From: Trueperaceae bacterium
GTDB lineage: Bacteria; Deinococcota; Deinococci; Deinococcales; Trueperaceae
Reading direction: 5' to 3'
Assembly (NCBI GenBank): GCA_965214405.1
Contig: OZ243956.1
Coordinates: 32,001 to 96,000, forward strand
Length of the DNA: 64,000 nt
Under the pieces are notes generated by a model. That model searched no databases, was not told where the DNA came from, and worked only from the letters and a program-made list of their open reading frames with translations. Positions 55,867 through 64,000 of the stretch are shown in pieces; position 1 is the stretch's first letter, and every line of letters starts with the position of its first letter. The translations under genes were made by a program, and so were the position numbers.

Positions 55867-58800
55867 GTGAGCCGTACTCTTGGCAAGGCGCAACGGCTCA
55901 CCGAACTGCTCGAGCTTCTCAAGCTCAAAGCCTGGACGAGCCGCGAACTCGCGGAACGCTTCGGGGTGCCCATCCGCACGGTTCAGCGCGACCTAGACAC
56001 GTTACGCGAGAGCGGGCATGGGGTCGCAACCTCAGAGGATTTCCGCCACCGCCTCACGCCGACGGGTTCGTCGCTTAACGCCGTCGAAGGACTCGCAGTT
56101 CACGCGGCGGTAAGGCTCTTGTACCACCACTCACCTACCCAGAACCGGTATTACCGCTCGGCTTTGGAGAAGCTGGCGGCGCTGCTGCCCGAACCTGCCA
56201 GGGGAATCGCGGCGGCGAGTGCGCAAGACCTGAAAGTGCGCCCCGGTGACGACCGGACTTTGGAGTTGGTCGCGCGGGCCTGGTTCGAGGGCAAAGTTCT
56301 GCGGTTCAAGTACCTCGCCCCGGATAGTTTTGAACCTGCCTGGCGCGAGTTGGAAACATATCTGCTCGAGGTCAGCCGCACTAACTTGGCCCTTTACGCC
56401 ATCGGTCAGGAGCGCACGTTCAACCAGGTGCTCACCTTCAAATTGTCCCGTATGAGCGATGTTCGTGTTTCGGACGATGCCTACGCCATCCCTGAAAGCT
56501 TTGCGCCGAGCGAATACTTGAGCGCTGCTTGGGGCGTGATGGGTGGGCAAGGGGACAAGGTGGCTAAAGTGCGCTTGCGCTTTGAGCCCGAAGCCGCCTC
56601 CCGCATCAAAGAGGGCGGCTATCCCAATTTGAGGGTAGAGAGGGAACTAGCGGACGGCTCGCTCGAGGTCGAAATCAAAGCAGGCACCGACAACACGGGC
56701 TTTCCAAAAGAACTCCTCCCCTGGGTACAGAGCTGGGGGCCACGGGTCGATGTTCTTGCGCCCAAGGCGCTGCGCGAACGCTGGCTGAGCGAGGCCGGTG
56801 CCGTCGCGTTGAGGCACCCTCACTTAAAAACGAGGCTCGCGTCACTAGATGACGCACCCAAAGGACAGACTGAACCTATGACGAATCTTTCAGCGAAGGC
56901 GGCGGCCCTGTGGGCCAAGAGTGGTGAAGACGAGCAGGGCTATAGCCTCGTGGGACACTTGTTGGACGTGGCGGCGGTGGCGCACGCCCTGCTCGAGCGC
57001 GAACCCCCGCAGACCCTGCGGCTTTACGCGGAGGATGTGGGGCTCGAGCCCGGCGACGCTAAGAAATGGATAGCGGCACTGGCGGGCTTACACGACATCG
57101 GCAAGGCGACCCCGGCCTTTCAGCGGCAGTGGGAACCGGGACGGCTGGTGGTCGAGGCAGCGGGGCTTACGTTTAGCAAGGGCGACAAGGGCACCGCACA
57201 CGGAAAACTCTCGCAGAAAATCTTGCAAGACGAGCTCAAAATCTACGGTTTAGGTAAGAGGCTCGCCGCTCAAGTTGCCGACGCCGTAGGCGCACATCAC
57301 GGTCTGCGAACCGCGAAGGGCGACTTGTCAGACAACGTCGTTCCGCAACAAGACATGGGCAACAATGCGTGGCAAGAAACCCGGCAAGAGCTGCTAACCG
57401 AGTTTCTAAAGGCCGTAGAAGTCGTTCAAATCTCACCCCCGATCACCGCCGCACTCACGGGCCAGGGCTTTATCCGATTAGCAGGCTTGACCAGCTTTGC
57501 CGATTGGATTGGCTCGACAGTTGACTTTTTTCCTACCGACCGCAAAGTAGAGAATTTGAGAGAGCACTTTCTCGACTCGTTGCTAAGGGCGCGCAAGGCC
57601 CTGAACGCGATAGGCTGGGAGCGCCGCGAGCCTTTAGCGGCGGAACCTCGAGCCTTCAACACCATCTTTCCTTTTGAGCCCAACGGTCTTCAAAAGCAAA
57701 TCGTCAACCTTGTCGAGCAAACGCGTGAACCCTCTCTTCTCATCGTCGAAGCGCCGATGGGGGAAGGAAAAACGGAGGCTGCCTTCTACGCCCACGTCAC
57801 TTTGCAACGGCAGTTGGGGCACCGAGGCTTGTACGTGGCGCTGCCCACGCAGGCAACGGGTAACGCCATGTTTGAGCGCACCAAAAACCTTCTCAGCACC
57901 TTCGAGCGCGACACGCCACCCGACTTGCAGCTTTTACACGGCTCGAGCCTGCTCAACGACGCTTACGCCACCATCCAAATCAAGGATGTAGATGGAGTGG
58001 ACAACACAGAGAGCGAGGTGTGGGCCAGAACCTGGTTCACCAGCAAAAAGCGGGCGCTGCTTTCGGAAAACGGGGTGGGCACGGTTGACCAGGCGCTCCT
58101 CAGCGTTCTAAACATCAAACATCAATTTGTGCGCCTGTGGGGATTGGGTAACCGCACGGTTGTTTTGGATGAAGTCCACGCGTATGAGCTTTACACGAGC
58201 AAGCTCATTGAGCGCCTAGTCTGCTGGCTGCACGCGCTCGGCTCGTCGGTCATCATCATGAGCGCGACGCTGCCCACCGCCAAACGACTAGATTTAGTCA
58301 AAGCCTTTGGCGGCGGCGCGGCCGAGGAGCCCGTCTCTTACCCACGCATCACGCAGGTGCTGGGCGGAGAGACCAAGGAGGTTTCGTTCTCGGTGAGAGA
58401 GCAGAAGCCTATGAGCTTGAAAAGGGTCAGCCTAGATCTCGAGACGGTAGCAAACCTTCTCACAGGCTTGATGACGGACGGCGGTTGCTCGGTGGCTATT
58501 CTAAACACGGTGCAGCGGGCGCAAACTCTTTACAGCCTGTTTGGGGAGGGTGAAGGTCTTGAGGCCGGAAAGCGTTTACCCGACGGCACCGAGGTCTATC
58601 TGTTCCACGCCCGTTATCCGGCGGAGGAGCGGAAAAAGCGGGAGGAGGCGGTGCTGGGGAAGTTCGGCAAGGGCGGAGAGCGCCCAGCCAAGGCCATTCT
58701 CATCGCCACGCAGGTGGTTGAGCAGAGTTTAGACCTTGATTTTGACGTGATGGTGAGCGACTTAGCGCCCGTCGATTTGCTCTTGCAGCGTGCCGGACGG

Positions 58801-59556
58801 ATGCACCGCCACGAGCGCGAACGTCCCGCCGCCCACGCGTCGCCCGTCCTTTACGTGGCAGGGCTGACCGACGCCGAGACGCTACCGGATGTCAGCAGCG
58901 AATACTTCGATTGGGTTTACGAAGCGTTCACGCTTTACATGACGTGGTGGACCTTGGCTGATAAGGAAGTTATTGCGTTACCTGAAGACTTTGAGCCGCT
59001 TATCAAAGCCGTATACGGCGAAACCGATTTTACGGCGCTGCCGGATTTCGCCCGTGAGGTGGTTGAGCAAAGCCGCGCGGACCAGGAAGGAGAAGCCGAC
59101 ACCCACAAGCGAAAAGCTGTCAGCTCAGCTAACGTGATACCTCTGCCAAACATCTACCCGACCACCGACGGCGTCAGTTCGGTTGTCAAGAGCGAGGACG
59201 ACGAAGACCCCAGCCTTCACGAGCACTACCGGCCCGCGACGCGTCTGGGCGATCCCAGCGTCACGGTCATCCCCTTACATAAAAAGGATGACAAGCTTTA
59301 CCTCGAGCCCTCCTACGAAACCGAAATCGTGTTGAACAAGGAACCCTCATGGCAAGCGGCGAGAACCCTCTATCTGCAACACCTCAAGCTGAGCCGTAAA
59401 GGTCTTGTGTTCGAGCTTGTTAAATATCCAGTACCCGCTTGGCAGAAGCAACCGCTGCTGCGTTACTGCTTCCCGCTCACTTTTGAGGAGAGGGTGGCAG
59501 TGGTTGGGAAATTGACCCTTCGCTATGACGATGCGCTAGGGATTGTGTATGGGTAG
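55867..59556 (+). CDS. cas3: HTH-WYL-WCX regulator fused to type I-E Cas3 (HD nuclease + SF2 helicase)
   Basis: N-terminal ELAERFGV..RTVQRDL HTH and TFKLSRM WYL motif; from aa 338 LWAKS..HLLDV, HDIGK, HHG, ADW, APMGEGKT, DEVH, SAT, QRAGR. Confidence 0.93.
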   Translation: MSRTLGKAQRLTELLELLKLKAWTSRELAERFGVPIRTVQRDLDTLRESGHGVATSEDFRHRLTPTGSSLNAVEGLAVHAAVRLLYHHSPTQNRYYRSALEKLAALLPEPARGIAAASAQDLKVRPGDDRTLELVARAWFEGKVLRFKYLAPDSFEPAWRELETYLLEVSRTNLALYAIGQERTFNQVLTFKLSRMSDVRVSDDAYAIPESFAPSEYLSAAWGVMGGQGDKVAKVRLRFEPEAASRIKEGGYPNLRVERELADGSLEVEIKAGTDNTGFPKELLPWVQSWGPRVDVLAPKALRERWLSEAGAVALRHPHLKTRLASLDDAPKGQTEPMTNLSAKAAALWAKSGEDEQGYSLVGHLLDVAAVAHALLEREPPQTLRLYAEDVGLEPGDAKKWIAALAGLHDIGKATPAFQRQWEPGRLVVEAAGLTFSKGDKGTAHGKLSQKILQDELKIYGLGKRLAAQVADAVGAHHGLRTAKGDLSDNVVPQQDMGNNAWQETRQELLTEFLKAVEVVQISPPITAALTGQGFIRLAGLTSFADWIGSTVDFFPTDRKVENLREHFLDSLLRARKALNAIGWERREPLAAEPRAFNTIFPFEPNGLQKQIVNLVEQTREPSLLIVEAPMGEGKTEAAFYAHVTLQRQLGHRGLYVALPTQATGNAMFERTKNLLSTFERDTPPDLQLLHGSSLLNDAYATIQIKDVDGVDNTESEVWARTWFTSKKRALLSENGVGTVDQALLSVLNIKHQFVRLWGLGNRTVVLDEVHAYELYTSKLIERLVCWLHALGSSVIIMSATLPTAKRLDLVKAFGGGAAEEPVSYPRITQVLGGETKEVSFSVREQKPMSLKRVSLDLETVANLLTGLMTDGGCSVAILNTVQRAQTLYSLFGEGEGLEAGKRLPDGTEVYLFHARYPAEERKKREEAVLGKFGKGGERPAKAILIATQVVEQSLDLDFDVMVSDLAPVDLLLQRAGRMHRHERERPAAHASPVLYVAGLTDAETLPDVSSEYFDWVYEAFTLYMTWWTLADKEVIALPEDFEPLIKAVYGETDFTALPDFAREVVEQSRADQEGEADTHKRKAVSSANVIPLPNIYPTTDGVSSVVKSEDDEDPSLHEHYRPATRLGDPSVTVIPLHKKDDKLYLEPSYETEIVLNKEPSWQAARTLYLQHLKLSRKGLVFELVKYPVPAWQKQPLLRYCFPLTFEERVAVVGKLTLRYDDALGIVYG

Positions 59557-59596
59557 CTTTACCCAGAAGCCTTGTTATGGTTGCTGTGCAAGCGCG

Positions 59597-59635
59597 GAAG
59601 TTAGCCTTGACTAACCTCCCTATTTCGACTACTAT
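59597..59635 (+). promoter_or_regulatory. TA operon promoter with overlapping inverted-repeat operator
   Basis: TTGACT 59607-59612, N17, TACTAT 59630-59635; IR GGAAGTTAG-N6-CTAACCTCC over the -35. Confidence 0.6.
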
Positions 59636-59650
59636 GCTATCGAGGACGTA

Positions 59651-60010
59651 GTGAGCTCTACGCCGTACATCGTTTACGAGTACGAGGACGAAAATGGTTA
59701 CTCCGAGTTTCGGGAGTGGCGCAAGGCGCTTAGACGCTCCAATCCTAGAGCTTCTGCGAAAGTCGATTGGCTCATCGCGCTGCTCGAGGACAAAGGTACA
59801 ACACTGTCGTTTCCCTACGTCAGTCATATAGACGGGCCGATTTATGAACTGCGCGGTAAAACCGGACGTAACACCGTACGCATTTATTACTGGCAACAGG
59901 ACAAAGAGGTATTCATCGCCGCCGCGGGCGAGGTGAAGCAGCAGAACCAAGCTGACCGCAAGCTTATTAGGAAAGCTTTGGCAGCTTACGAGGAATATAA
60001 CAAGGAGTAA
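59651..60010 (+). CDS. RelE/ParE (HigB/Gp49-like) toxin
   Basis: L...G..L.FPY..HI.G.IYELR....VRI.Y pattern; toxin-first gene order. Confidence 0.85.
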   Translation: MSSTPYIVYEYEDENGYSEFREWRKALRRSNPRASAKVDWLIALLEDKGTTLSFPYVSHIDGPIYELRGKTGRNTVRIYYWQQDKEVFIAAAGEVKQQNQADRKLIRKALAAYEEYNKE

Positions 60011-60014
60011 CGCC

Positions 60015-60410
60015 ATGCCAAAACGTCCCTTGAAACGAGCGAGCGACCTAAGCCAAGAGTTTTTGCAAGACCCCGGTTACGCTGCTCTATACCGTGAGGT
60101 CGCTAACGAAGAGATTGGAGCGGCGCTGCGCACAGTGCGCGAGGCTAAGGGGTTAAGCCAGCGTGAGGTTGCCGAGCGCATGGGCGTGACGCGTCCACGT
60201 GTGTCGCAGATTGAAAGTGTCGAGGGTACGGCGTTGGCGCTCGAGGTGCTCAGCCGCTACGCCCGCGCGGTAGGGTGCCGCCTCGACATCACTTTGAAAG
60301 ACGCCGAGACCAACCATGAGGTTGCTGCGCTGTTTGTACCAACGCTCGAGGCTACCGCGCCAAAACCGCCCGGCGCGGAGCCTTATGAAAAAGCAGAGGG
60401 GGTAGCCTGA
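60015..60410 (+). CDS. XRE-family HTH antitoxin (HigA-like)
   Basis: LRTVREAKGLSQREVAERMGVTRPRVSQIE. Confidence 0.88.
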   Translation: MPKRPLKRASDLSQEFLQDPGYAALYREVANEEIGAALRTVREAKGLSQREVAERMGVTRPRVSQIESVEGTALALEVLSRYARAVGCRLDITLKDAETNHEVAALFVPTLEATAPKPPGAEPYEKAEGVA

Positions 60411-60465
60411 AAGATAGTTCCGCACCACGTAGGCACAACGGTTATGGGTAGAATGAGTTTGAAAC

Positions 60466-60555
60466 ATTTTCCCTACACGCGTGGGGATGAACCTTAGTAA
60501 TTCCACCTGTGGACGTAATAGTGAATATCCTCCCCACACCAGTGGGGCTGCGGTT
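60466..60555 (+). CRISPR. Single-spacer mini-array of type I-E-like repeats (crRNA-like regulatory RNA)
   Basis: Repeat ATTTTCCCTACACGCGTGGGGATGAACCT (60466-60494), 32-nt spacer (60495-60526), repeat ATCCTCCCCACACCAGTGGGGCTGCGGTT (60527-60555); both hairpins preserved; -10 TAGAAT at 60449-60454. Confidence 0.85.
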
Positions 60556-60562
60556 GGTGGGT

Positions 60563-60623
60563 AAGTAGTAATTCCACCTGTGGATGTAAAGCCTTGACTC
60601 CGATACTGTCCCGTGTGTATAGT
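60563..60623 (+). promoter_or_regulatory. Promoter overlapped by the mini-array target (AAG PAM + protospacer)
   Basis: AAG 60563-60565, protospacer 60566-60597, TTGACT 60594-60599, N18, TATAGT 60618-60623. Confidence 0.75.
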
Positions 60624-60776
60624 GAAAAAGCGTGGCTGGGGCCTACCGCGAAATAGTCACCCCACCACGCCTCAAGGGACATGCCCTCTGAATCCGATTT
60701 TACCTTAGCTTTGGCACAAATTCAAAGGGCGTCCACTTTAACGTAGGGAGGTTTCCACCTCTCGGACGGGAGTAAC

Positions 60777-60962
60777 GTGTTAGACCTCGAGGACACCACC
60801 TACCAAGCGTTTAGGGACAGCCTGTATCAGGTTGACGAGCGAGACCGCGCCGTGCTGTGGGAGTTCTGGCCCCACTTTCAATCGGCTTTGAACTCTCGAC
60901 ATGGAGAGTGGCAGAAGCTGACGTTAACGGGCTCGCTCGATGACGACGATGTAGACCGTTAA
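60777..60962 (+). CDS. Small acidic orphan protein (61 aa), candidate CRISPR-repressed effector
   Basis: SD GGGAG, GTG start; lies between the targeted promoter and a terminator. Confidence 0.6.
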   Translation: MLDLEDTTYQAFRDSLYQVDERDRAVLWEFWPHFQSALNSRHGEWQKLTLTGSLDDDDVDR

Positions 60963-60967
60963 CCGTG

Positions 60968-61001
60968 GTGAGGCGCATCCCGCGCCTCACTTCTTTATTT
61001 T
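60968..61001 (+). terminator. Intrinsic terminator
   Basis: GTGAGGCGC-ATCCC-GCGCCTCAC followed by TTCTTTATTTT. Confidence 0.85.
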
Positions 61002-61006
61002 GGCGA

Positions 61007-61038
61007 CGTCACTACATGACGCACCCCCCTCTTACACT
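61007..61038 (+). promoter_or_regulatory. Cascade operon promoter with palindromic operator
   Basis: CGTCA-CTACA-TGACG-CACCC (19/20 identical to 56840-56859), -10 TACACT 61033-61038, then SD GAAAGGAGG. Confidence 0.65.
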
Positions 61039-61058
61039 GCTTTTGAAAGGAGGCCGAG

Positions 61059-62555
61059 ATGTTTAACCTCATCCATGAACCTTGGCTGCGGGTCGAAAAC
61101 CCAGACGGCTCGCTAGGCCAGGACTCGCTAAAGGGGGTTTTATTAAACGCCCACCGCTACGCGCGGCTGGCCCACCCCTCCCCCGCCGTGCTCCCGGCGC
61201 TGCACCGCTTTCTACTGGCGGTGCTGTACCGGGTACTGGACGAACCACGCAGTACCGATGAAGGGGTTGATTTGTTCAAACAGGGTCGGTTTCCGGCGGA
61301 GCGCGTCGGTGCTTATCTCGAGCACTGGCAAGACCGCTTCGACCTGTTCCACCCTGAAAGGCCCTTTTACCAGGTGCCGGACTCGGAAGATAAGGTGTCA
61401 GGGGTCGCCCGGCTCGCAGCCGAACTCGCCAGCGGCACGAACAAACTCCTCTTCGACCACACCGCGGAGGCCGACCCGCCGGAGTTGACGCACGCCGAAA
61501 TCGCGCAACTGCTCGTGACCCGGCAGATGACCGCCATCCCCGAAGGCGCGGGCTACAGCCCCAGCCCGGCGGGCGGCGCGGCGTTCGTGCTGCCGCAGGG
61601 TCGCAACCTGTTCGAGACGCTGGTGCTCAACCTCGTTCCTTATTCTGAGGAGGAGAACGAGGACGACGCGCCCATTTGGGAAGGGGCTACGCCGAAGAGC
61701 GCGGCGGTAAAAGCCGCCAAGCCGCGCGGCTCGAGAGGGCTTACCGAACGTTACACCTGGCTAACGCGCATCGTTAAGTTGCAAGAACCCGAGGGTGACG
61801 CGCCTGTGTCGGCGCTGCATTATGCGGCAGGCATCAAGTTCGATGGCGGCGACAGCCCCGACCCCATGTTGGCTTACCGCAAAGATGAAAAGCGCGGGCT
61901 CCTCCCGGTATCTTTCAACAAGTACAAGGCGTTCTGGCGGGACTTTCAGGCCCTAATACCCAATCCCGACAGCGGAAGCTACTTAGCGCCCCAGACGGTA
62001 AAACACGCTCGCAACATATATGAAGAATTAGAGCGCACCGACCCCCTCACCTTACTGGTTTCCGGCCTGAGCAATGACAAGGCCAAGGTCGTGCTGTGGC
62101 GTACCGAACAGTTCAACGTGCCGCAGGTCCTCCTTCAAAATCCGGGGGCTTACGCCGAGTTGACGCGGCTGCTCGAGTACGCCGACAACGGCGGGCGCAC
62201 CCTCTACGGCGCGACGCAGCGCTTGGCGGAAAAGTTGCTGAGCATTGGCGAACGTAAACCCGACCCCGCCGACGTTCGCAACCTGGCCGCGAGTTTTCCC
62301 GCCAGTATGCACTACTGGAGCAGGCTCGAGACCCGCTTTCCCGAACTGCTGGAGCGCTTTGAGACTCAGACCTTTGATGAGCGGTTCAGTTGGTGGTTAG
62401 GGCAAATCACCCTTGTAACGCGCGAAGCCTGGGAGCTTGCCTTAAAGAGCGCCGGGGAAAACGAGCGCGCCTGGCGGGCCGGGGCCGAGGCGAGCAAGGT
62501 CATCAACACCCACCTCAAACGCCTGCGCGAACAGACAGCCGAGCCAGCCCCATAG
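61059..62555 (+). CDS. casA: Type I-E Cascade large subunit Cas8e (Cse1/CasA)
   Basis: FNLIHEPWL, LHRFLLAVL, DRFDLFHPERPFYQ, LFDH, G.NLFETL.LNL. Confidence 0.95.
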   Translation: MFNLIHEPWLRVENPDGSLGQDSLKGVLLNAHRYARLAHPSPAVLPALHRFLLAVLYRVLDEPRSTDEGVDLFKQGRFPAERVGAYLEHWQDRFDLFHPERPFYQVPDSEDKVSGVARLAAELASGTNKLLFDHTAEADPPELTHAEIAQLLVTRQMTAIPEGAGYSPSPAGGAAFVLPQGRNLFETLVLNLVPYSEEENEDDAPIWEGATPKSAAVKAAKPRGSRGLTERYTWLTRIVKLQEPEGDAPVSALHYAAGIKFDGGDSPDPMLAYRKDEKRGLLPVSFNKYKAFWRDFQALIPNPDSGSYLAPQTVKHARNIYEELERTDPLTLLVSGLSNDKAKVVLWRTEQFNVPQVLLQNPGAYAELTRLLEYADNGGRTLYGATQRLAEKLLSIGERKPDPADVRNLAASFPASMHYWSRLETRFPELLERFETQTFDERFSWWLGQITLVTREAWELALKSAGENERAWRAGAEASKVINTHLKRLREQTAEPAP

Positions 62556-62563
62556 GAGGCATC

Positions 62564-63154
62564 ATGACAGAAACCGTGACAAACAGCACGACAAACACGC
62601 CCTCGAGCAAACAAGCAGATGTAGCCGAACGCTTCATCAGTCACCTGGACAAACTCAATCCAGCCAAAACGCCGGGAGCCAAGCGGCAACACTTAGCCGA
62701 GCTTAGAAAAAGTCTCAGCTTCGACTTAGGCACGCACGTTCCGGCCTTTCCTTATGTTGAGCCATTTGTAGCAACGCTGGACGAGAGGACAGGCTACTGG
62801 CGACGCGCTATGTTCTACCTCGTCGCGGGGCTCTACGCCTCTCATCCAGAGTCCGCCTCTCAGGGGGGTTTCGGCAAGGCGATGGCGGTTCTTAGTCACA
62901 GACGCGAGAGCGGGAGCCTGGAGAAACGTTTTCTCGCGCTCTTGGCTGCGGAAGAAGCAGGGCAGCTCGTCTACCACTTGCGCCAACTCGTCAGCCTGCT
63001 CAAGGCCGAGGGTGTCGGCCTAAACTACGCAACGCTGCTCCGCGACCTGTTCGGGTGGCAACACCAAGACCGCTATATTCAGCGCCGCTGGGCGGGGCAG
63101 TATTACGGCTTTACCTCCGATGCTCCCGACACCTCCGCCACAAAAGAAACCTAG
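62564..63154 (+). CDS. casB: Type I-E Cascade small subunit Cas11 (Cse2/CasB)
   Basis: [47 protein letters not shown] before ATG 62564. Confidence 0.93.
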
Positions 63155-63165
63155 AAAGGATTCCT

Positions 63166-64000
63166 ATGAAAGCACTTTTAGAAATTCACGCCCTACAAAA
63201 CTTCGCCCCCAGCAACTTGAACCGCGACGACACCGGCAGCCCCAAAGATTGCGAGTTCGGCGGCTACCGCCGCGCCCGCATCAGTTCGCAAAGCCTAAAG
63301 CGGGCCATGCGGACCTACGTTCGCGCCGAGAAGCTTCTTGAGGATGACGCGTTGGCTGTGCGTACCAAGCGCGTAACCGCCGAACTGGTTGGGCAACTTA
63401 AAAAGAAGGGTCGGGACGAGGCCGAAGCTGGCAAGGTGGTCGAACTCGCGTTGGCGGGCCTGTCGCTCAGCGTAGACGAGGGCAAGACGCAGTACCTTCT
63501 CTACCTTGGCAAGAGCGAAATTCGGGACATGGCGAACAGCATTGACGCGTATTGGGACGAACTACTCGAAGCTGTCCCCGCAGAGGATGACAAGAAAAAA
63601 TCAAAAAAGGACGCAAAGGGCAACGTTCCAAAAGACCTCGTTGCCGCTTTGGAAAAAAGCTTAGACGGCGGCAAAGCCGTGGACTTAGCCCTCTTCGGGC
63701 GGATGCTCGCCGACCTGCCCGAGAAAAATCGGGACGCCGCCTGTCAGGTGGCCCACGCCATCAGCACCAACGCGGTGCAACGCGAGTTCGACTTCTATAC
63801 CGCCGTCGACGACCTCAAGCCGGAGGACAACGCGGGCGCGGACATGCTCGGCACGGTTGAATTTAACAGCGCCTGCTATTACCGCTACATTGCGCTCGAC
63901 TTAGAGAAGCTAGCCGCCAACTTGCAGGGCGACGGTGAGCTTTTAGAAAAAGGTCTTAGGGCTTTTCTCGAGGCGAGCTACTTCGCCGCGCCCTCGGGCA
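63166..64000 (+). CDS. cas7: Type I-E Cascade backbone Cas7 (Cse4/CasC), 3' truncated by window edge
   Basis: [70 protein letters not shown]. Confidence 0.96.

Follow-up and report, generated by a model that had tools for sequence, protein, structure and literature searches.

A candidate CreR/CreA-type mini-CRISPR between cas3 and cse1 of a Trueperaceae type I-E locus, probably guiding Cascade to a neighbouring promoter

In type I-E CRISPR systems, Cascade loaded with a degenerate CRISPR RNA (crRNA) can repress its own operon. The CreR RNA of Salmonella enterica I-E brings about Cascade-dependent repression of P_casA (8.6-fold), which is relieved by excess crRNA or by AcrIE8 (Liu et al., 10.1101/2023.03.10.532045), and Shmakov et al. 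(2023; PMC10120712) described regulatory mini-arrays for about 19% of the I-E loci. The same logic is applied to toxins by CreTA (Haloarcula hispanica I-B) and CrePA (Acinetobacter I-F; PMC12737573; 10.1101/2024.01.05.574328), and phage Cracr RNAs mimic CreR and CreA (10.1101/2024.10.29.618823). The present analysis concerns a 64,000-nt stretch (the window) of a Trueperaceae bacterium genome, positions 32001-96000 of contig OZ243956.1 (GCA_965214405.1; G000:C1:32001-96000), in which a complete type I-E locus carries a single-spacer mini-array between cas3 and cse1. The genome, G000, is a single contig of 4.5 Mb with 60.6% G+C; other genomes are given below by G numbers and individual loci by L numbers. 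With a probability of roughly 0.82, the element is a degenerate mini-CRISPR of the CreR/CreA type that forms part of the adjacent I-E system, and its guide RNA very probably puts the cell's own Cascade on a neighbouring promoter, switching this promoter off. The CreR/CreA class has already been published for type I-E; the element described here is a new member of it.

The mini-array and its target are composed as follows.

60449 to 60454, plus strand: -10-like TAGAAT, separated from repeat 1 by 11 nt; putative mini-array promoter element
60466 to 60494, plus strand: pseudo-repeat 1, with hairpin and crRNA 5' handle (array-consensus comparison; predicted fold)
60495 to 60526, plus strand: spacer-like guide of 32 nt, framed by both pseudo-repeats
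60527 to 60555, plus strand: pseudo-repeat 2, hairpin kept, 3' part degenerate (array-consensus comparison; predicted fold)
60563 to 60565, plus strand: AAG, putative protospacer-adjacent motif (PAM), found also before the matches in related loci
60566 to 60597, plus strand: target, a protospacer-like site (comparison with the spacer)
60594 to 60623, plus strand: promoter-like TTGACT-18-TATAGT (consensus scan, 10 of 12 matches)

The original prediction, made without database searches, had described two degenerate 29-nt repeats with both hairpins kept around a spacer of exactly 32 nt, a TAGAAT just upstream of repeat 1 and, behind an AAG, a near copy of the spacer that overlaps a -35 TTGACT; all these parts were recovered at the positions listed. 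The two pseudo-repeats are identical to each other at 19 of 29 positions, and the hairpins of both are present in the minimum-energy and the centroid folds of the predicted transcript. Comparison with the consensus of the main I-E array of the same genome, which had been proposed as a check, shows that pseudo-repeat 1 agrees at 22/29 positions overall, at 11/12 in the stem (the altered pair becomes G-U) and at 7/8 in the 5' handle, whereas pseudo-repeat 2 agrees at 17/29 overall, 12/12 in the stem and 2/8 in the 5' handle. Two repeat-like sequences of cognate-repeat origin thus surround one spacer between cas3 and cse1, which is the CreR/CreA layout, and the 5' handle lies in the first pseudo-repeat and the hairpin of the 3' handle in the second, which is the asymmetry of that class. 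The handle in repeat 1 and the hairpin in repeat 2, both retained, are the parts that an RNA needs for loading into Cascade.

A decayed array fragment, with a spacer once acquired from neighbouring DNA and with no present function, would also account for the degeneracy of both repeats. The decay is non-random, however, and the position between cas3 and cse1 is that of the regulatory mini-arrays found in about 19% of I-E loci (PMC10120712). Absence of drift at positions 6, 12 and 18 would allow such an inert fragment as far as the G000 copy is concerned, selection on pairing being unreadable from this copy alone, but the layout recurs in 22 of 90 loci of the phylum, in several families and with different sequences (see below), and an inert remnant is highly improbable.

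Spacer and target form a 24-nt direct repeat (60495-60518 and 60566-60589, 96% identical): 23 of the first 24 positions of the target match the spacer, with the mismatch at position 20, and none of the last 8 (positions 25-32) does. In type I Cascade, every sixth guide base is flipped out and remains unpaired. When AAG-flanked sites are scored over the non-flipped positions among 1-17, the promoter site matches at 15/15 and the next best site in the genome at 11/15; the target, 71 nt downstream, is the sole good AAG-flanked match of the spacer in the 4.5-Mb genome. The complementarity is therefore PAM-proximal and partial, and lies behind an AAG, as in CreR/CreA guides. The -35 TTGACT (60594-60599) overlaps the final 4 nt of the target, and the TATAGT follows at 60618-60623. 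In a chance control, the best direct 24-mer match at a distance of at most 300 nt was 23 in the real 801-nt region and 15-17 in 20 shuffles, and chance does not hold as an explanation. The 82 spacers of the main array have no full match to the genome, the best elsewhere being chance-level matches of 15-22 nt, and thus give no sign of self-priming. Rfam returned no match in 59500-61200 at E <= 1, and phage and plasmid records contained no match to the mini-array region, hence no phage mimic in those collections.

A sister locus in genome G032, whose Cse1 is 90% identical, is the only homologous locus that a search of 61 relatives with the 648-nt intergenic region brought up. The flanks of the two loci are 84-87% identical, and the block up to and including TAGAAT is kept; past TAGAAT the sequence diverges, and from the spacer through the start of the downstream small open reading frame (ORF) the two are unrelated. 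Nevertheless, the mini-array parts are present in G032 too. Its pseudo-repeat 1 shares the handle of the G000 copy and has a hairpin with compensated changes, its spacer measures about 25 nt, and the hairpin of pseudo-repeat 2 is there as well. Its spacer and target match at positions 1-5, 7-10, 12-15 and 18-20, with AAG before the target and TTGACT directly after it. A pair that is different and yet matched indicates that guide and target have been exchanged together, so that the spacer-target covariation anticipated for homologous loci is present.

The comparison was extended to the phylum, in which Cse1 was found in 94 of 364 genomes (101 match rows). Ninety cse1-upstream regions from 88 genomes were taken; the 11 rows omitted were mostly partial or split pieces, and 3 of the 90 regions are shortened by contig ends. 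These regions were scanned blindly for a handle-like heptamer with at most 1 mismatch and an AAG-flanked site 30-220 nt downstream with at least 9 matches at the 10 positions 1-5 and 7-11. The scan gave 17 matches with the target on the same strand and 7 on the opposite strand, whereas the reverse strand gave 0/90 and each of 5 + 3 shuffles 0/90. One match from each scan (G214 and G251) was dropped on inspection by eye because the 29 nt before the 'spacer' held no repeat-like hairpin. The mini-array layout is thus present in 22/90 regions (compare about 19% of I-E loci; PMC10120712), distributed over several families and carrying unrelated but matching spacer/target pairs; the 22 loci are partly related, and the counts are not independent events. 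A PAM-blind search of the 10 loci with a recognisable handle placed 8 best matches 18-31 nt past pseudo-repeat 2, and all 8 are preceded by AAG. In the two others, G031 and G179, cse1 is preceded by a repeat-like pair for which no convincing target was found (best 7/12); they are outside the 22.

The mismatches in these pairs have a period of six. At positions independent of detection, the 22 loci match at chance level at position 6 (5/22), and at 7/22 and 6/22 at positions 12 and 18, as against 78/110 at positions 13-17 (Fisher p = 1.3e-6, a significance that kinship overstates). Flipping of every sixth base is mentioned for I-F1 (PMC10120712). On sequence grounds, the 6-nt mismatch period is a signature of Cascade pairing, and one that neither a protein operator nor plain duplication would leave. 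The targets in related loci abut or overlap a -35 of the TTGAC type. With this, the reading of the element as a CreA/CreR-like guide, advanced in the original prediction, is supported in each of its sequence-level expectations, namely repeat asymmetry, intact cas6e and Cascade genes, a unique AAG-flanked target next to a -35, and covariation.

Two further features of the comparative set concern its geometry. In Thermus-like and some other loci (L062, L066, L068, L076, L054, L092), the target is on the opposite strand and the complement of the AAG PAM overlaps the -35 TTGACA. The lengths of the spacer-like sequences in the 22 loci, taken from a simple hairpin pattern and possibly off by 1-2 nt, are 30-33 nt (9 loci), 24-26 nt (3), 18-20 nt (9) and 14 nt (1); steps of about 6 nt suggest that many of the regulatory guides might assemble Cascades with one or two Cas7 subunits fewer.

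As its fallback, the original prediction had offered a tandem protein operator, and the duplicated 24-mer does contain a perfect palindrome (5-bp arms, 2-nt gap) in both copies, at 60502-60513 and 60573-60584. A dimeric regulator, for example the neighbouring helix-turn-helix (HTH) protein or the HTH-WYL part of Cas3, both encoded nearby, could bind it, and the repeat-like flanks would then be incidental. Inverted repeats were also seen by eye in the targets of G032 (6 bp; L023) and G285 (5 bp; L040), which is above expectation for 3 of the first 8 loci. Yet G032 and G285 keep the PAM-proximal match although the palindrome of their spacer copies has decayed, and most related targets have no palindrome. 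An operator of this kind predicts neither pseudo-repeats that match the host array in exactly the crRNA-relevant parts, nor AAG before 8/8 PAM-blind matches, nor a mismatch period of 6, and the fallback is accordingly very unlikely. As a regulon motif the palindrome was rejected, as it occurs in the spacer and the target only; the window holds no further copy (one match with 1 mismatch, against 1.5 expected by chance). The palindromes may represent a protein operator inside the Cascade target that acts besides Cascade, or may have arisen by chance.

For the mini-array as a Cascade guide, the following mechanism would fit the observed anatomy, the repeats that match those of the host array, a target that is unique in the genome and the covariation with its 6-nt period. 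The mini-array would be transcribed from about 60461, and Cas6e would bind the two retained hairpins to produce a crRNA-like RNA of about 61 nt, in which the 32-nt guide would stand between an 8-nt 5' handle supplied by pseudo-repeat 1 and a hairpin 3' handle supplied by pseudo-repeat 2. Once loaded with it, Cascade would recognise the AAG at 60563-60565 and pair with the template strand over 24 nt (60566-60589). In type I-E, Cascade is locked and Cas3 licensed once the R-loop extends all the way to the PAM-distal end. The 8 unpaired distal bases should therefore result in binding without cleavage: the R-loop would remain incomplete, Cas3 would be unlicensed, and the complex would stay in place and cover the -35 at 60594-60599. 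The repressed transcript would encode a 61-residue protein and, via read-through of a terminator-like hairpin at 60967-61001, cse1-cse2-cas7-cas5-cas6e. Such an arrangement would constitute negative feedback, with the promoter opening if there is too little Cascade, if other crRNAs titrate it or if an anti-CRISPR blocks it.

Several points weigh against this interpretation. The pairing at 23/24 is more than usual, about 17 nt being paired in relatives, and in I-E a complementarity of this extent together with a canonical PAM could permit some interference or priming; the margin against cleavage is narrower in the G000 copy than in its relatives. For comparison, CreR of S. enterica pairs over 15 nt (10.1101/2023.03.10.532045). 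The G000 pair is matched at positions 6, 12, 18 and 24 and thus carries no drift signature of its own. With the longest match of the 22 loci, the G000 copy looks young and may be a guide recently copied from its target or converted against it. The promoter consensus scan found no clear -35 ahead of TAGAAT. The base after the stem of pseudo-repeat 2 departs from the consensus, so that Cas6e cleavage at this site is uncertain. AAG as the PAM is not derived from phage protospacers of this particular system. The runs index contained no RNA run holding 60300-61300, the runs that hold it being 2 DNA runs of one study. Finally, a conserved, well-formed terminator-like hairpin stands between the small ORF and cse1, so that control of the cas genes by the target promoter is something we infer.

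Downstream of the target promoter, three features precede cse1.

60630 to 60670, plus strand: stable hairpin at the 5' end of the predicted transcript (RNA fold)
60777 to 60962, plus strand: acidic ORF of 61 codons, first gene behind the target promoter (ORF list; codon comparison with G032; profile search)
60967 to 61001, plus strand: terminator-like hairpin with T-run between the small ORF and cse1, nearly identical in G032 (terminator scan)

The adjacent promoter of the original prediction therefore stands as a TTGACT-18-TATAGT promoter-like sequence, but it is not directly before cse1, as the small ORF and the terminator-like hairpin intervene. The post-start hairpin, for which Rfam has no match, has a stem of about 11 bp and a loop of 18-20 nt and recurs by eye with other stem sequences in L028, L029, L033, L034, L041, L081, L085, L097, L107, L109 and L110; in the Meiothermus-like loci, the loop sequence is conserved.

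The small ORF has a GTG start with a GGGAG-like ribosome site 5 nt upstream. Relative to G032, its differing codons are 15 synonymous and 10 non-synonymous, and the differences by codon position number 11, 2 and 17; judged by this pattern, it is a real gene under purifying selection. None of ATG, GTG and TTG stands at the corresponding start in G032. With 14 D+E versus 6 K+R the protein is acidic, and AlphaFold2 models it as three helices (4-16, 21-29 and 31-51; predicted local distance difference test score 77). It belongs to no Pfam or PADLOC family, a PADLOC DndF row (E 0.003, 14 bits) being taken as chance; its model gave 0 fold matches at E <= 0.001 against solved structures or viral predicted structures, and the ESM Atlas gave no usable match. 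By Pfam, PADLOC, fold and atlas, the protein thus lies outside the CrePA and CreTA toxin families.

Meiothermus-, Truepera-, Deinococcus- and Thermus-like loci carry colinear relatives of the small ORF in the same position. These form a family of about 50-67 residues in which one Gly is almost invariant and the end is often 'G-S-L-D plus acidic'. A profile search found this family in 18/22 mini-array loci (window 60777-60962, L023, L028, L029, L033, L034, L041, L054, L062, L066, L068, L081, L085, L087, L092, L107, L109 and L110) and in 0/68 other cse1-upstream regions; as these loci themselves had supplied the profile, only the absence from the other 68 is informative. Of the 4 mini-array loci without the family, 3 have another ORF of 46-47 codons at the same place and 1 has a short remnant. 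In public collections the family is small: 15 clusters in one, all 'hypothetical', and 19 representatives among 1.84 billion in another. A single-protein query of metagenome contigs gave 418 matching stretches, 0 of which were confirmed.

As to what the promoter controls, our own reading is that the small gene and the cas genes would both be under the control of the guide, with the hairpin at 60967-61001 as an attenuator. The consensus scan found no canonical promoter between this hairpin and cse1. In G059, 22 nt separate the end of the small ORF from cse1, and in several relatives the ORF abuts the cse1 ribosome site. The lack of a promoter belonging to cse1 and the closeness of the small ORF to cse1 in G059 support a single operon. 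The region from the hairpin to the cse1 start (60992-61058) has 1-2 differences in about 105 nt between G000 and G032, the adjacent coding sequence being about 87% identical; it contains a short inverted repeat and no recognisable promoter, and may be an unrecognised regulatory element.

Alternatively, the element could be a guard of the CreA rather than the CreR type, in which the guide mainly controls the 61-residue protein on a transcript ending at 60967-61001. The protein would then be a harmful or alarm effector freed when Cascade is lost or inhibited, a protein analogue of CreT or CreP in an addiction or anti-anti-CRISPR module, and the cas genes would be expressed otherwise or by leak-through alone. 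The association of the small-protein family with the mini-array loci and the other small ORFs that replace it in exceptional loci are consistent with a guarded cargo, as is the purifying selection on the protein, but common descent may account for the perfect association, given a profile hidden Markov model built from the same loci. Terminator-like or strong hairpins follow the ORF in G000, G032, G238, G067, G077 and G100, and the hairpin with about 70 nt beyond it hardly differs between G000 and G032, less than the coding sequence does; in G059, G023 and G231, however, the small ORF stands directly before cse1 without a terminator, like a first operon gene, and no independent cse1 promoter was found in G000. 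The protein itself bears no mark of toxicity, being acidic, soluble-looking and three-helical, and family, fold and language-model searches gave no match for it. Both roles are combined in Haloarcula, where CreA represses a toxin as well as the cas genes (10.1101/2023.03.10.532045), which is a precedent. Control mainly of the small protein is rather unlikely on this evidence.

The mini-array, promoter and small ORF also appear to move together. The ends of cas3 in G059 and G230 are about 98% identical where aligned, and the two loci differ by a single clean block of about 430 nt containing these three parts; in G230, cse1 follows cas3 directly. Presence or absence as one block would suit a guarded module as well. 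The block is present in L029 (G059), where the -35 of the mini-array promoter lies within the cas3 coding end, and is absent from L030 and L031 (G230 and G047). It is possible, though tentative, that the mini-array, the PAM-flanked target, the promoter, the 5' hairpin and the small gene constitute a portable cassette of about 430 nt that carries a new Cascade-guarded effector, made in a burst when Cascade is missing or blocked by an anti-CRISPR. In L024 (G031), a 109-codon ORF extends from about 440 to 110 nt upstream of cse1, after the repeat-like pair without a detectable target; its first half presumably resembles an addiction-module toxin of the RelE/HigB type, possibly frameshifted, and it has no family match. 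This ORF would be a different cargo in the same position.

The surrounding locus is on the plus strand, begins at 55867 and continues past the end of the window.

55867 to 59556, plus strand: cas3 with an N-terminal HTH-WYL-WCX regulator-like domain (Pfam Cas3_HD, Cas3-like_C_2, Cas3_C, WYL, WCX, HTH_11; PADLOC Cas3c and WYL models)
59651 to 60010, plus strand: Gp49/DUF891 (HigB-like) ORF, kept in G032 (Pfam)
60015 to 60410, plus strand: HTH_3 ORF, kept in G032 (Pfam)
61059 to 62555, plus strand: cse1 (cas8e) (Pfam CRISPR_Cse1, E 9e-96)
62564 to 63154, plus strand: cse2 (Pfam CRISPR_Cse2)
63055 to 64000, plus strand: cas7, 5' part, start codon uncertain (Pfam)

Beyond the window, Pfam matches identify the remainder of cas7 and then cas5, cas6e, cas1 and cas2, followed by the main array at G000:C1:98885-103908, on the same strand and 2.9 kb beyond the window end. 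Of its 83 repeats, 78 are identical; the spacers measure 32 nt (63), 31 nt (18) and 43 nt (1). Assignment to type I-E rests on Pfam matches for all eight genes and on this 83-repeat array with its 29-nt repeat and 32/31-nt spacers; cas6e is intact, as is every Cascade gene. The genes that precede cas3 look like housekeeping genes, namely mnmE, a sigma/anti-sigma pair, a methyltransferase and a response regulator. The N-terminal HTH_11-WYL-WCX module of Cas3 (55867-56900) has the architecture of ligand-sensing defence regulators and could provide an extra protein layer of locus control. The Gp49/DUF891 and HTH_3 ORFs form a toxin-antitoxin-like pair between cas3 and the mini-array, with a promoter-like site of their own at 59607-59635. 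In another genome, G030, the leader-proximal spacer of the main array (L004 1529-1560), which lies behind a variant repeat ending in A, is 73% like the G000 guide over 82 nt, repeat included. The G030 genome has no second site for this spacer at <=3 mismatches in 18 nt, and the likeness is treated as unexplained or due to chance.

The mini-array appears to represent a clean and well-supported case of the published principle by which Cascade and a degenerate crRNA repress their own operon. With the longest complementarity of the 22 cases, it is well suited to testing the extent of pairing that I-E Cascade accepts before licensing Cas3, and the comparative set is an unusually clear in-silico read-out of the every-sixth-base rule. 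What appears to be new is that the guide-targeted promoter would first drive a conserved, acidic, helical protein of about 60 residues without a known family. In the openly accessible passages that it covered, a literature search found no description of a Deinococcota mini-array or small ORF; in the passages of PMC10120712 that were consulted, neither a Deinococcota example nor a small conserved ORF between target and cas8 was found, although its supplementary files may list such loci. If the small protein is a guarded effector, the I-E systems of Thermus, Meiothermus, Deinococcus and their relatives would possess a CreTA/CrePA-like safeguard built on a new protein; should it instead be a component of the Cascade operon, its gene would be an accessory gene so far overlooked in systems some of which come from model organisms of structural biology. 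Were the cassette to prove real, its effector could be a new kind of protein toxin or alarm, or a factor counteracting Cascade inhibitors, and the replacement of spacer, target and leader between G000 and G032 would reflect an arms race with guide-mimicking phage RNAs.

Among the known systems, the closest is CreR of S. enterica. As there, a degenerate mini-CRISPR lies between cas3 and casA/cse1, the 5' handle is in the first pseudo-repeat and the 3' handle in the second, and a PAM-proximal partial match defines an AAG-flanked site at the promoter, here a putative one, of the Cascade operon (10.1101/2023.03.10.532045). CreR, however, has 15 consecutive matched nt about 140 bp upstream of casA with no intervening gene (10.1101/2023.03.10.532045), whereas the element described here has a 23/24 match 493 nt upstream of cse1, with a 5' hairpin, a conserved 61-codon ORF and a terminator-like hairpin in between; it also belongs to another phylum and is known from its sequence alone. 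Like the mini-arrays of PMC10120712, it is located between cas3 and cas8, with the upstream repeat better conserved than the downstream one and an AAG target in the putative cas8 promoter region, and mismatches at every sixth position are tolerated. Toxin-antitoxin genes are enriched in such loci (PMC10120712), but the toxin-antitoxin-like pair is here upstream of the mini-array and not between the mini-array and the cas genes.

With CreTA and CrePA, the element would share a crRNA-like RNA that guides the effector to a promoter by partial complementarity, a repressed gene inside the cas locus, and the inheritance of guide and cargo as a unit. Unlike these, CreT being a small RNA toxin and CreP a KilA-N-type protein that blocks cell division (PMC12737573; 10.1101/2024.01.05.574328), the 61-residue protein matches neither. 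Phage Cracr RNAs have the same RNA architecture and shortened spacers, and many of the related loci likewise have spacers of 18-20 or 24-26 nt instead of about 32 nt; Cracr RNAs are carried by phages and prophages to silence host immunity (10.1101/2024.10.29.618823), whereas the element described here is chromosomal and lies inside the cas locus.

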